From a virus (taxonomy: Duplodnaviria > Caudoviricetes), in the IMG/VR virus record IMGVR_UViG_3300028128_000337, positions 34,279-98,278 of that record: DNA of 64,000 nt, one strand, 5' to 3'. The stretch's first letter is position 1; each line of letters opens with the position of its first letter. Shown here one piece after another: positions 26,157 to 29,126 of this stretch. A program made the translations under genes and the position numbers. Below the pieces are notes generated by a model, which saw only the letters and a list, made by a program, of their open reading frames with translations, was not told the origin of the DNA and did not search any database.

Positions 26157-26539
26157 AAGTTGGCGCTAGCACGTTAAGTGTGTTGTTAGAAAACAACGTG
26201 CTAGAAGTAAAATTTAAAAGACGGATACCTGTGGCAGGCAAACCTTCCACCAGGAGAATGCTATGCACAAACAGCCCAGTGTTGTTGTTGAGCACCGCCG
26301 GGAGAGAGACACTACATTACACATCACCTAGTGGTCCACCCAAATACAACACCGCCAGCAAAAATGTAGTGATAGCCTGGGATATATTCAAACAGGATTA
26401 CCGAGCCATCAGTGTGGACAACCTCGAGGTGATAAGTCAAATGCCCGTGAGCGGAGATGGTACAGATTTTTGGGAATATTTCAACAACACAATATATCCC
26501 ATGACCCCTCAACAGAAGGAGGCTTTTTTCAATGTCTGA
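26153..26539 (+). CDS. WYL_2/DUF2693-like SH3-fold protein
   Basis: V.F.RR...R.MLCT...WDI....YR pattern. Confidence 0.55.
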   Translation: MKVGASTLSVLLENNVLEVKFKRRIPVAGKPSTRRMLCTNSPVLLLSTAGRETLHYTSPSGPPKYNTASKNVVIAWDIFKQDYRAISVDNLEVISQMPVSGDGTDFWEYFNNTIYPMTPQQKEAFFNV

Positions 26540-26885
26540 CACACCGTACAACACTCTAGAGTGTCTCAAAAAATTGTTACAGAAAGAAGTGGTATTTCTG
26601 CTTGGTCAAAAGAGTGTACGCAAGGGTAGATTGCTGCTTTACAACATACATGATTATCATGTGAAATTCATGATACACACAAATAAAAACATAAACAAAA
26701 CATACGAAGTACCATATCCATACAACGTCACACATAGTGACAATCACGTCAGTTTCTCGTACACAATCAAAGATTTTTGTAGGGACAACGCGAACAAGCA
26801 TGATGTAGTGATGTGTAAATATGGATCTTCAATCAATAAATTTTTCGACAAACGACTCACAATTTCAGTTATAGACCTGCAGTAG
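26532..26885 (+). CDS. Hypothetical protein
   Basis: 117-aa coupled ORF. Confidence 0.55.
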   Translation: MSDTPYNTLECLKKLLQKEVVFLLGQKSVRKGRLLLYNIHDYHVKFMIHTNKNINKTYEVPYPYNVTHSDNHVSFSYTIKDFCRDNANKHDVVMCKYGSSINKFFDKRLTISVIDLQ

Positions 26886-26898
26886 AATAAATAATTGT

Positions 26899-27480
26899 AT
26901 GGCTATAATAAAACCGGTATATACTAACATTCCGCAGATAGGTGCTGTGGAGTACACTCTAGGAGGCAAAGTTCCAGTAGATGCAGACACGGTCACAGAC
27001 GTCGGAGCGCGCTTCACTAACAAAAAATCAAACACCACCATAACGGTGAAGAGTTTGTACACGTTAGAAGAAGGTGACACCATCAGAATGAAGTCCTCAA
27101 GTGGTACAAGTTATGTATTGACCGCCTCCGCCGATGGTACCACCAGTGAGGATACCACGGCCCCGAAATATGAAATTGGCGCCACCAAGGCAACCACCGC
27201 CTCGAACATGAAAGATGCAATTGCAGCATTGACAAACTTCACTGCCACAGTCAGTGACACTGTGGTGTATGTAACTCAATCAACTGCCGGTGAGGCTGGT
27301 AACACTCGAGTTTACAACTCCAACAAGGCTTGTATCAGTACTGCAAGCTTCAAGGGTGGGGGATACGCGTATGATGAACATGACGAAGCCACTGAGGCGT
27401 TAACGAAGGGTTATGCCAAGACTACTGCAGATGCCAAGATGTTAGAACACGCGCGCAAACGCAATCTTGGATTGATCTAA
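26899..27480 (+). CDS. Thr/Ala-rich late (probably virion) protein
   Basis: ATAAATA at 26887; TITV..GDTI..VTQSTAGEAGNT..FKGG module typical of virion proteins. Confidence 0.6.
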   Translation: MAIIKPVYTNIPQIGAVEYTLGGKVPVDADTVTDVGARFTNKKSNTTITVKSLYTLEEGDTIRMKSSSGTSYVLTASADGTTSEDTTAPKYEIGATKATTASNMKDAIAALTNFTATVSDTVVYVTQSTAGEAGNTRVYNSNKACISTASFKGGGYAYDEHDEATEALTKGYAKTTADAKMLEHARKRNLGLI

Positions 27481-27494
27481 CTTCGGATAAATTC

Positions 27495-27975
27495 AGACAC
27501 AAAAAACCCTCAAACTAGTGTCTCTCGATATAGGTATAGTGCTACCTACCGGCTAGAATTGATAATAAAGAACAATTGGATCATGTCGGTAATTTTCTCC
27601 GGATGATGTGGTACGCACACAATGCACCTATGAAACAACATAGATGCATTGAGTATGGTAATTATATCCGTATTGATATGTTTACGCAAAAGACGCACTC
27701 TTCGAGATATTAATTTTATGGAGAATCCTGACCTAGTAAACTCCGGTTACGAATAACCACTAATATATGCCGACATTTGTCGCAGTTCGGTGCAATGCAG
27801 ATCTTACTCTGCCGTTTTTCACCTGTCGTCTAACAGTTGTGTTTAATTTAGCTTTGTCCATTCTAGCAGTTCTCTCTGCCAAGTCGCAAACCATCATTGA
27901 GCCAACTACTACTCACGCTCGTGTACCGAAAACGCTGATGGGTATGCTGTAGCGTTGTTTCGCACTTGTGCACTA
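27495..27975 (-). ncRNA. Candidate large structured non-coding RNA (~480 nt)
   Basis: No sense ORF of 60 aa or more; at least 8 hairpins plus nested long-range helices; upstream TTGATT-N16-TATCAT on minus strand. Confidence 0.55.
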
Positions 27976-27980
27976 TATAT

Positions 27981-28008
27981 ATGATAGCGTATAAAAACTA
28001 GAAATCAA
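27981..28008 (-). promoter_or_regulatory. Sigma70-type promoter pointing into the non-coding interval
   Basis: TTGATT-N16-TATCAT; same TTGAWT -35 as the other promoters in the window. Confidence 0.55.
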
Positions 28009-28022
28009 GCATAAATATAAAT

Positions 28023-29126
28023 ATGAGGAGCAATCCATTTTATTTCGAGATAAAAGACGTGATGACACAGTTTGTTGCTGCGTTCAACAACATAATAATA
28101 AGCCGTCATGATAAATCTAAAAATGTAAGGTCTAAAGTACATGTTAGATATGTATATGCCCCTAAACAACGTGTGGTACATGACTTGACAAACAAAGCTC
28201 GACACTTAACCTTACCGGTGGTGGCTGTCAATATCACTGGAATCAATCGAGATTCTAGCCGTGTGTTCAACAAACTAGAAGGTGCATATTACACCGGTGA
28301 GGAACGACATAGGAGCTCACCCAAGTCTGACAAATCTAACAAAGCTGTACATATGCTACAACCAGTACCGATCAACATACAAGTCAGTATGAGCATGATG
28401 GCACGGTATCAAACAGATATAGAGCAGATTGTGAGCAATTTTGTACCGTATTGTGACCCTTATATTGTAATTTCATGGATGATGCCGGAAGGTTTCACAT
28501 ATTACGATCAAGAGATTCGAACAGAAGTAGAATGGTCTGGTGATATTAGCATGGATTATCCTGATACACTGACTGGTACAGATCCATATCGACTTAGTGC
28601 AGACACTACATTCACTATAAAAACATGGCTGTTCAAACAAGTGGAGACACCACAAGAGAATATATACAAAATTACAACCAACATATCACCGGTCGTCGAC
28701 CTCCCGGACATGTCACTAGTCTTACCGATGTATGATAATGTGACAGAGAGGTCATATGTTGAGGGTTTAGGACCACCGCTAACAGCAGCCCCGTATATCA
28801 CACATGTTGAAGATGATGGTCAGACTACCAACAAAGTGGTGCTTGGTTACAATCTGGGTGAAACAAGCAGTGTGTATCTGTCTTGTAACAACATCAACGC
28901 ATTGAGCGGTGAGCGTGTGCAGTTGTTTGACAAAACCGGTTTGAACACATTATATCCAGCTTTCACTGGTGTTAGTGTTGATTATGACATCACTAGTGAC
29001 AACACTATAGTAATTGATGATACAATTGTACCACCTGGTGTGATGTATGATATTGTGGTGGTGAGCGCTGGTGGTTATGATACAGCGGTAAACTCACCTC
29101 GACACAACCAAGATGTTATATCGTAA
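28023..29126 (+). CDS. 15: Tail terminator/sheath stabiliser, T4 gp15-like, with C-terminal Ig-like extension
   Basis: F...FNNI.I.R, V.Y.YAPK, LP.VA...I.RD..R, PVP.NI, D..QIV.N..PY. Confidence 0.8.
   Translation: MRSNPFYFEIKDVMTQFVAAFNNIIISRHDKSKNVRSKVHVRYVYAPKQRVVHDLTNKARHLTLPVVAVNITGINRDSSRVFNKLEGAYYTGEERHRSSPKSDKSNKAVHMLQPVPINIQVSMSMMARYQTDIEQIVSNFVPYCDPYIVISWMMPEGFTYYDQEIRTEVEWSGDISMDYPDTLTGTDPYRLSADTTFTIKTWLFKQVETPQENIYKITTNISPVVDLPDMSLVLPMYDNVTERSYVEGLGPPLTAAPYITHVEDDGQTTNKVVLGYNLGETSSVYLSCNNINALSGERVQLFDKTGLNTLYPAFTGVSVDYDITSDNTIVIDDTIVPPGVMYDIVVVSAGGYDTAVNSPRHNQDVIS

Follow-up and report, generated by a model that had tools for sequence, protein, structure and literature searches.

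We describe a structured non-coding RNA encoded on the minus strand of a 64,000-nucleotide (nt) window, the whole stretch of viral DNA that was analysed. The window is part of the 98-kb IMG/VR viral record IMGVR_UViG_3300028128_000337, and all coordinates refer to the window. The RNA lies in a 542-base gap (27481-28022) between two plus-strand genes, has its own predicted promoter and, based on the comparison of homologues, is about 387 nt long. That it is a real structured non-coding RNA on this strand we regard as close to certain. Judged by Rfam 15, the GenBank phages and the literature that could be searched, the family is new. The novelty lies in the family, as no known one fits; what the RNA does we infer. 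The initial annotation, made from this single sequence, was confirmed in part: the gap, the promoter and five of its helices stood, while its size, its other helices and its long-range pairs did not. Its general view of a large multi-domain phage RNA of unknown class is supported by the covariation in 54 homologues and by the lack of a match in Rfam 15.

To our knowledge, bacteria and their viruses have yielded no more than about a dozen classes of large RNAs with intricate folds. Where the function is known, these are central machines (ribosomal RNA, RNase P, transfer-messenger RNA (tmRNA) and self-splicing introns), and the orphan classes OLE, ROOL, GOLLD and raiA have recently revealed unprecedented RNA-only architectures. 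The RNA described here adds a well-supported new class with 54 distinct sequences, three pseudoknots and a setting in uncultivated marine T4-like phages, and it is conserved above the neighbouring proteins. Since it is only about 390 nt long and has a defined promoter, it is small enough for in vitro transcription, probing and cryo-electron microscopy, so that its function is directly testable. The main features of the gap are:

27588-27974, minus strand: conserved structured non-coding RNA, about 387 nt (54-copy alignment; 95 pairs, 92.2% of cells pair, 66 pairs changed on both sides)
27981-27986, minus strand: -10 box TATCAT (TATAAT in 19, TATCAT in 12 and TATTAT in 11 copies, 42 of 54; spacer 15-17 nt)
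28003-28008, minus strand: -35 box TTGATT, sigma-70-type (46 of 54 copies have TTGAT or TTGAC where the box aligns)
27481-27587, no strand: remainder of the gap, outside the RNA family and unconserved (related contigs are conserved only from about 27588)

Evidence for a conserved RNA on the minus strand

Related viral contigs were gathered using gp15, the gene on the promoter side of the RNA, as a handle, and nhmmer detected the element in 18 of the gp15-linked loci. In contigs with only 59-66% identity in gp15 and 42-48% in p117, the neighbour on the opposite side, the DNA identity over some 420 nt of the gap is 85-89%. A degenerate DNA pattern built from three invariant blocks was used to scan contigs and genomes. 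It matched 33 viral contigs and 62 marine metagenome contigs, including those of Tara Oceans; the single match in 185,579 prokaryote genomes is a chance one and was unconfirmed by nhmmer. A second DNA pattern added four further members and one chance match in coding sequence (L181). No match was found by blastn, in either near or distant mode, among 50,697 GenBank phage records. The resulting alignment (nhmmer, MAFFT) holds 54 distinct full-length copies that are 55-92% identical to that of the window. Based on these searches, the RNA seems to be confined to one lineage of large (~200-kb) uncultivated marine T4-like phages.

Already for the first 18 copies RNAalifold proposed 76 pairs, 46 of them with compensatory double changes. 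To score the structure on all 54 sequences, we used a curated set of 95 pairs (5028 cells) and two kinds of controls: the same pairs with partners slid by 1-3 columns, and 500 column shuffles. Cells pair in 92.2% of cases in the curated structure compared to 34-43% with slid partners, 66 pairs are changed on both sides compared to 20-29, and the covariation score is 0.392 compared to at most 0.096. None of the 500 column shuffles equalled any of the five measures. The covariation that the initial annotation had named among the checks to make is thus present.

The strand can be read from the pairs themselves. Among the 81 well-aligned pairs read on the minus strand, G-U combinations account for 11.0% of cells and A-C combinations for 1.1%, a ratio of about 10:1. 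This excess identifies the minus strand as that of the RNA, in agreement with the earlier remark that several pairs are G-U on this strand only, matching the direction of the promoter. When the same pairs are read on the opposite strand, the paired fraction falls from 96.8% to 86.8%. The RNAalifold energy is likewise lower for the minus strand (-127.5) than for the plus strand (-96.9).

The minus-strand promoter reported initially, TTGATT-N16-TATCAT (28008-27981), turned out to be conserved in position across the homologues, every one of which has a sigma-70-type promoter just ahead of the RNA. Helix P1 begins 7 nt downstream of the -10 box, and therefore the transcript would start at about 27974. 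At the other end, conservation stops at about 27588, which gives an RNA of ~387 nt (27588-27974) instead of the ~480 nt originally estimated.

The element does not code for a protein. The gap is real and has stop codons in all six frames. The embedded 45-codon open reading frame (ORF), whose conservation would have spoken for a coding role, is not conserved: the lengths of the aligned stretch are out of frame, falling into the three classes modulo 3 in 22, 18 and 14 copies, and in the majority of copies the frame is soon interrupted by stops. The three codon positions vary to the same extent (0.179, 0.193 and 0.191), with no excess at the third. Together, compensatory changes, strand-specific wobbles, a conserved promoter and no coding signal make up the profile that would be expected of a structured non-coding RNA gene.

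Architecture of the RNA

The fold comprises about 15 helices, arranged in two three-way domains plus a number of hairpins; invariant, A-rich single strands connect them, and three long-range pseudoknots lock the whole. From 5' to 3' its elements, all on the minus strand, are:

27944-27974, minus strand: P1 (27970-27974 with 27944-27947) enclosing the P2 hairpin (27962-27966 with 27951-27955); all five P1 pairs change on both sides, and one P2 pair is U-G in 47 and C-G in 7 copies
27890-27942, minus strand: three-way domain of P3 (27937-27942/27890-27895), P4 (27927-27935/27915-27921) and P5 (27911-27914/27899-27902); 95-99% of cells pair, AU (27 copies) alternates with GC (26) at pair 132:149, and six pair types occur at 155:164
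27863-27882, minus strand: P6 hairpin with two invariant or near-invariant G-U pairs (U-G in 54/54, G-U in 53/54); pair 187:205 is CG in 42 and UA in 11 copies
27841-27858, minus strand: conserved joiner, in which 27856-27858 make up the 5' strand of pseudoknot PK2 and 27841-27852 are the near-invariant GCUAAAUUAAAC
27823-27836, minus strand: P7 hairpin, the loop of which (27827-27831, AGACG) is the 5' strand of pseudoknot PK3
27797-27819, minus strand: invariant AAAAACGG joiner and P8 hairpin (100% of cells pair; 3/4 pairs change on both sides)
27783-27793, minus strand: invariant GCACCGAAC joiner; 27783-27785 make up the 5' strand of pseudoknot PK1
27771-27782, minus strand: P9 hairpin (CGAC/GUCG; all four pairs change on both sides), followed by column 309 (27769)
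27707-27766, minus strand: three-way domain of P10 (27759-27766/27707-27714), P11 (27755-27758/27745-27748) and P12 (27741-27744/27720-27723); in P10 99.8% of cells pair and 7/8 pairs change on both sides, in P12 100% of cells pair and GGAG/CUCC becomes GAAG/CUUC in 11 copies
27728-27730, minus strand: 3' strand of PK1, within the P12 loop
27691-27706, minus strand: P13 hairpin (27704-27706/27698-27700) and the 3' strand of PK3 (27691-27695, CGUCU)
27658-27685, minus strand: variable P14/P14b arm, its loop carrying the first CYUGGAR motif (27666-27671)
27620-27651, minus strand: long P15 hairpin (97.6% of cells pair; many U-G to C-G switches), with the 3' strand of PK2 (27637-27639) in its loop
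27588-27603, minus strand: 3' tail, in which the second CYUGGAR motif (27597-27603) is located and conservation ends

The wobble pairs of P6 are valid on the minus strand only and thus add support for this strand. For the P14/P14b arm column-wise counts are poor, as MAFFT misaligns it; the complementarity of its halves is nonetheless above that of shuffles (mean z -1.49).

It is worth relating this map to the helices drawn originally from the single sequence. Out of eight local helices, five covary: those at 27864-27881 (P6), 27823-27836 (P7, in which the outer three pairs hold), 27797-27812 (P8), 27745-27758 (P11) and 27621-27650 (P15). The strands thought to pair with each other within 27923-27965 form two separate covarying hairpins instead, P2 and P4. 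The conserved element does not extend to the helices at 27531-27548 and 27495-27523, which only this window has. Neither of the two nested long-range pairings has covariation in its favour. In AUGUCGG/CCGACAU, one strand covaries locally in P9 and the other (27583-27589) is at or beyond the 3' edge of the element. As for UUCUCC/GGAGAA, which would join the 3' strand of P12 to the tail, the complementarity is real in many copies, but it shows no covariation, and P12 covaries with its local partner. In L057, where P12 is GGGG/CCCC and the tail GGAGAG, only three pairs with the tail are left as we read the two sequences, so that this might at most be a competing pairing.

Read on the plus strand, the complement of P8 together with the invariant A5 run (27797-27820) makes a small hairpin followed by CGTTTTT and was scored as terminator-like. 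Since P8 is almost devoid of G-U pairs, it could fold on the plus strand as well, stopping read-through from upstream.

Pseudoknots and the column-309 switch

The alignment also points to three pseudoknots, PK1-PK3, that are absent from the initial annotation. A model-free G-test over all column pairs, corrected by average product correction, recovered both the nested helices and the long-range pairs of PK1 and PK2. In PK1, the CUG that ends the invariant GCACCGAACUG strand ahead of P9 (27783-27785) pairs with the P12 loop (27728-27730). All cells (100%) pair, with UA (36 copies) switching to CG (18) at 289:355, and GC (45) to AU (7) or UA (2) at 290:354. PK2 joins the GAC after P6 (27856-27858) to the P15 loop (27637-27639), with 212:485 being AU in 44 and GC in 6 copies, and 213:484 CG in 41 and UA in 10. 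PK3 connects the P7 loop (27827-27831) with the five bases directly after P13 (27691-27695). Because MAFFT misaligns that stretch, PK3 was scored sequence by sequence: between the two strands, each of the 54 copies retains 5-7 pairs of the strict Watson-Crick type, and 16 sequence variants occur (for example, AGACG/CGUCU, GAGCG/CGCUC, GGGUG/CACCC and GAACGA/UCGUUC). The covariation is compatible with either arrangement, so that the three pseudoknots could form within one molecule or between copies.

A further dependence involves a single base. Column 309 (27769) and column 471 of P15 (27647) are CG in 41 and UA in 13 copies with no exception, and the P15 pair to which the latter belongs, 471:499 (27647/27624), is GC in 38, AU in 13 and GU in 3. 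As we read the alignment, the C/U switch in column 309 recurs in several separate sub-groups. A C•G-C / U•A-U base triple would account for this, and so would a competing four-base helix.

Paired CYUGGAR modules

The CYUGGAR motif with similar following sequence occurs both in the P14b loop and in the 3' tail, and the two copies change in parallel (alignment columns 430-460 and 520-545). Within one sequence the matched variants are CGGA in both copies (13 sequences), CAGGA in both (1), UUGGA in both (1) and CUAGA in both (1). The two modules of the same RNA are more alike than pairs taken from dissimilar sequences, with a local score of 17.9 compared to 11.4. No complementary partner changing along with the modules was found. 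The simplest reading of this pattern is that they would be two equivalent contact sites for one partner.

Two other roles were considered and set aside. The 3' tail might be an alternative partner of the P14 5' strand, as in a switch or strand swap, and a few sequences do fold in this manner; taken over all copies, the complementarity does not exceed that of shuffles (mean z -0.21 compared to -1.49 for the P14 arm). A CsrA-type sponge might be suggested by four GGA motifs, yet one homologue has UAGAA in both co-varying motifs, and such a role would make the deep fold superfluous.

Genomic setting

The genes beside the RNA are:

28023-29126, plus strand: gp15-type T4 tail sheath stabiliser, 367 amino acids (aa), divergent neighbour (Pfam PF16724, E = 4e-21; PHROG 227)
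26532-26885, plus strand: p117, 117 aa, convergent neighbour, syntenic with the RNA

In the window, the gap is flanked by gp15 and by a 193-aa ORF (26899-27480, plus strand) that recurs in one other locus only. IMG/VR labels the 98-kb record a provirus and 46% complete; the visible genes are those of a lytic T4-like myovirus.

Of the 78 loci for which enough flank is available, 76 have gp15 next to the promoter end of the RNA. It is usually directly adjacent, the sigma-70-type promoter being 2-15 nt from the start region of this divergent gene; certain genomes have an ORF of 241 or 397 aa in between, neither of them assigned to a family. On the 3' side, a p117 homologue is found in 61 of 75 loci, convergent with the RNA and in most loci 0-100 nt away from it; variable ORFs are inserted here too. 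Both flanks thus appear as insertion hot spots for variable ORFs (window 26899-27480; L009:2272-2997; L077:1805-2998; L004:2352-3989). In L004, where no RNA copy was found, a 545-aa DinG/XPD-like helicase directly adjoins gp15. Profile searches of p117 against Pfam, PHROG and PDB gave no match; a weak MSP/Ig-like lead from the Atlas (0.92) is within the range reached by shuffled proteins.

The block upstream, consisting of a clamp-loader-like 131-aa protein, p154, p128 and p117, keeps its synteny wherever the RNA is present. No trace of this block was detected in the flanks of relatives without the RNA, in which gp15 is ~40% identical and is abutted, with a 4-nt gap, by a 154-aa gene. Nor is there an RNA copy anywhere in an 88%-complete 185-kb genome of the group to which these relatives belong. 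Synteny of the upstream block and absence from relatives at ~40% gp15 identity therefore mean that the RNA is a vertically inherited, lineage-specific gene at a module boundary, with the upstream block on one side and the structural block of gp15 on the other, and between insertion hot spots.

Comparison with known RNA families

At gathering scores, no Rfam 15 family matched the 64-kb window, including GOLLD, ROOL and OLE, which had been singled out initially, as well as HEARO, raiA, IMES RNAs, 6S and packaging RNA (pRNA). With cmscan at E <= 10 the region 27300-28200 gave only two chance matches (E ~9), both outside the element, and at E <= 1 nothing was found in ten divergent homologous loci. 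ARAGORN detected no tRNA or tmRNA in the window, and literature searches returned no description of the RNA. The earlier statement that hallmarks of tRNA, tmRNA, RNase P and group I introns are missing is therefore sustained by ARAGORN and Rfam.

Some of these families nevertheless merit comparison. The RNA resembles tmRNA and RNase P RNA in its length (330-400 nt for these), its richness in pseudoknots and its invariant joiners. It differs from them in lacking a tRNA-like acceptor and a T-arm, a tag reading frame and conserved regions of the P4 type. The Rfam tmRNA models are negative and no ORF is conserved; the RNase P models are negative for both the window and ten divergent copies, and the invariant blocks GCUAAAUUAAAC, AAAAACGG and GCACCGAAC presumably differ from the CR-I to CR-V blocks of RNase P. 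Group I introns are common in T4-like genomes, and those without an ORF are similarly ~400 nt long and pseudoknotted; in contrast to them, the RNA is intergenic, has its own promoter, no exons and stops in all frames, and the Rfam group I model is negative. A riboswitch or another cis leader is not indicated either: no conserved gene follows on the RNA strand, the sequence past the tail is unconserved and the RNA points away from gp15.

The pRNA of phi29, a 174-nt RNA of small podoviruses, is transcribed from its own host-type early promoter, folds into a particle and forms rings via complementary loops. Our RNA shares with it the phage origin, the structured nature and the host-type promoter. 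The differences are that the two co-varying loops are identical here rather than complementary and that there is no Rfam match; in addition, T4-type packaging motors are not known to use RNA.

The closest likeness is to ROOL and GOLLD, which are also phage-encoded, non-coding and several hundred nt long, with many helices, covarying pseudoknots and no known protein partner or function. In both, long-range "tertiary" pairs that covary were shown to connect separate copies of the RNA within homo-oligomeric, RNA-only cages (PMC12286853). They are, however, ~600-800 nt long compared to ~390 nt here, and there is no Rfam match in sequence or structure. The RNA is not located beside tRNA genes, of which the 64 kb have none, and adjoins gp15 in marine T4-like myoviruses.

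Candidate structured viral RNAs have also been mined from IMG/VR on a large scale, resulting in 10,006 unnamed candidates, those from IMG/VR intergenic regions being 29-151 nt long (PMC10690425). The data source and the use of covariation in viral intergenic regions are the same as here. Since these candidates do not exceed 151 nt, the whole ~387-nt RNA cannot be among them.

Possible function and alternative explanations

Based on these observations, we think it likely that the RNA acts in trans as a folded particle. It would be transcribed by the host RNA polymerase early in infection and might work through its three-dimensional shape, being neither an antisense RNA nor the leader of a neighbouring gene. 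A cis role towards gp15 is disfavoured because ORFs of 241 or 397 aa intervene in some genomes and because of the orientation of the RNA. Antisense action in trans was also considered, but the window shows no enrichment of sequences complementary to two of the conserved single strands. As in ROOL and GOLLD, the product might be a compact particle made of RNA, with a protein or further copies of the RNA as its binding partner; in that case the co-evolving CYUGGAR modules would serve as a pair of equivalent contact sites. By analogy, a binding or assembly scaffold may be preferred to a catalyst, seeing that the closest analogues assemble into RNA-only cages with covarying pairs between copies; we put forward this part tentatively, at a little under an even chance. 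The combined picture, a trans-acting folded RNA particle with a scaffolding role, is in our view the best overall explanation and a reasonably probable one.

Several observations weigh against this picture. For the single sequence the minimum free energy is no better than that of dinucleotide shuffles: z is -0.34 on the minus and -1.32 on the plus strand for 27481-28008 (528 nt), and -1.20 for the exact RNA. Helices in one sequence of ~500 nt are thus no more than chance would provide, contrary to the original impression of a region tiled with them, and the structural signal comes from the comparison of homologues; such energies do not in themselves speak against a structure. No intrinsic terminator follows the RNA, its 3' end being set by the limit of conservation alone. 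Transcription is a prediction from the sequence, and its early timing one from the promoter type. No partner protein has been identified, with p117 lacking a recognisable RNA-binding family, and the 54-copy alignment contains no conserved self-complementary loop, the mark of a kissing dimer. Finally, the invariant joiners and pseudoknots would fit the core of a ribozyme or of a ligand-binding RNA equally well.

The ribozyme is accordingly the most serious alternative, if an unlikely one: the A-rich joiners and three pseudoknots might constitute a catalytic core that processes the RNA itself or host or phage RNA early in infection. Size, number of helices, pseudoknots and the invariant unpaired nucleotides around P6-P9 are reminiscent of RNase P and group I cores, and among the large, complex RNAs of bacteria whose function is known, ribozymes form the majority. 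Still, no Rfam 15 ribozyme family matches, and neither an exon context nor a conserved cleavage-site signature was recognised. ROOL, GOLLD and OLE are equally ornate without being known to catalyse anything (PMC12286853). We consider it improbable that the locus is a boundary element in cis, with the convergent promoter and structured transcript blocking read-through from upstream or providing antisense to 3' ends. The conserved position at a module boundary, the convergence on p117 at 0-100 nt in most loci and the weak plus-strand terminator-like hairpin with its T-run (P8 complement and A5 run, 27797-27812) would all suit such a role. An insulator, however, would have no need of 15 covarying helices, of three pseudoknots or of G-U outnumbering A-C 10:1 on one strand, and the sequence downstream of the RNA is unconserved and receives variable ORFs.

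It is very improbable that the RNA is a member of a described family (tmRNA, RNase P, group I, ROOL or GOLLD) missed by covariance models, or that it is represented piecewise in the PMC10690425 catalogue. Covariance models can indeed miss divergent members, and a catalogue mined from IMG/VR intergenic regions could include fragments, yet cmscan (E <= 10 for the window, E <= 1 for ten copies) and ARAGORN were negative, and the IMG/VR candidates of the catalogue are at most 151 nt. An element acting at the level of DNA (origin, packaging site or recombination hotspot) or a degraded or recoded protein gene we find hardly credible. High nucleotide identity in a gap between variable ORFs might be taken as a sign of either, but compensatory changes and strand-specific wobbles are signatures of RNA. 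There is also no inflection of the GC-skew near 27.5-28 kb, a result that speaks equally against a replication origin with primer RNA. A protein gene is at odds with stops in all frames, frame-breaking indels and missing codon periodicity. Returning to the trans-acting particle, it is tempting to go one step further and speculate, with considerable doubt, about a new class of large RNA machines specific to an abundant lineage of ~200-kb marine T4-like phages, either a ribozyme or an RNA-only quaternary assembly, that takes over or shields a host function early in infection. In the version with an RNA-only assembly, some of the pseudoknots and the CYUGGAR modules would be contacts between copies.

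Additional observations at the locus

Many metagenome contigs end inside the RNA gene or at its edge (L105, L115, L131, L134, L137, L146, L164, L169, L170 and L174). These ends are probably assembly breaks at a conserved stretch common to diverged strains, and consequently the family is under-counted. In a small contig lacking the usual neighbours, a 280-aa ORF without homologues (L145:2170-3012, plus strand, that of the RNA in this contig) starts inside the 3' part of the RNA; it is the sole co-directional downstream ORF that we have seen. As for the other side of the locus, gp15 in the window has no Shine-Dalgarno sequence, and boxes resembling T4 late promoters, CATAAATA (28010-28017) and TATAAATA (28016-23), abut its ATG at 28023. 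These late-type boxes on the plus strand are only 2 nt away from the -35 box of the RNA on the opposite strand. This arrangement suggests back-to-back promoters and, possibly, a leaderless late gp15 mRNA.

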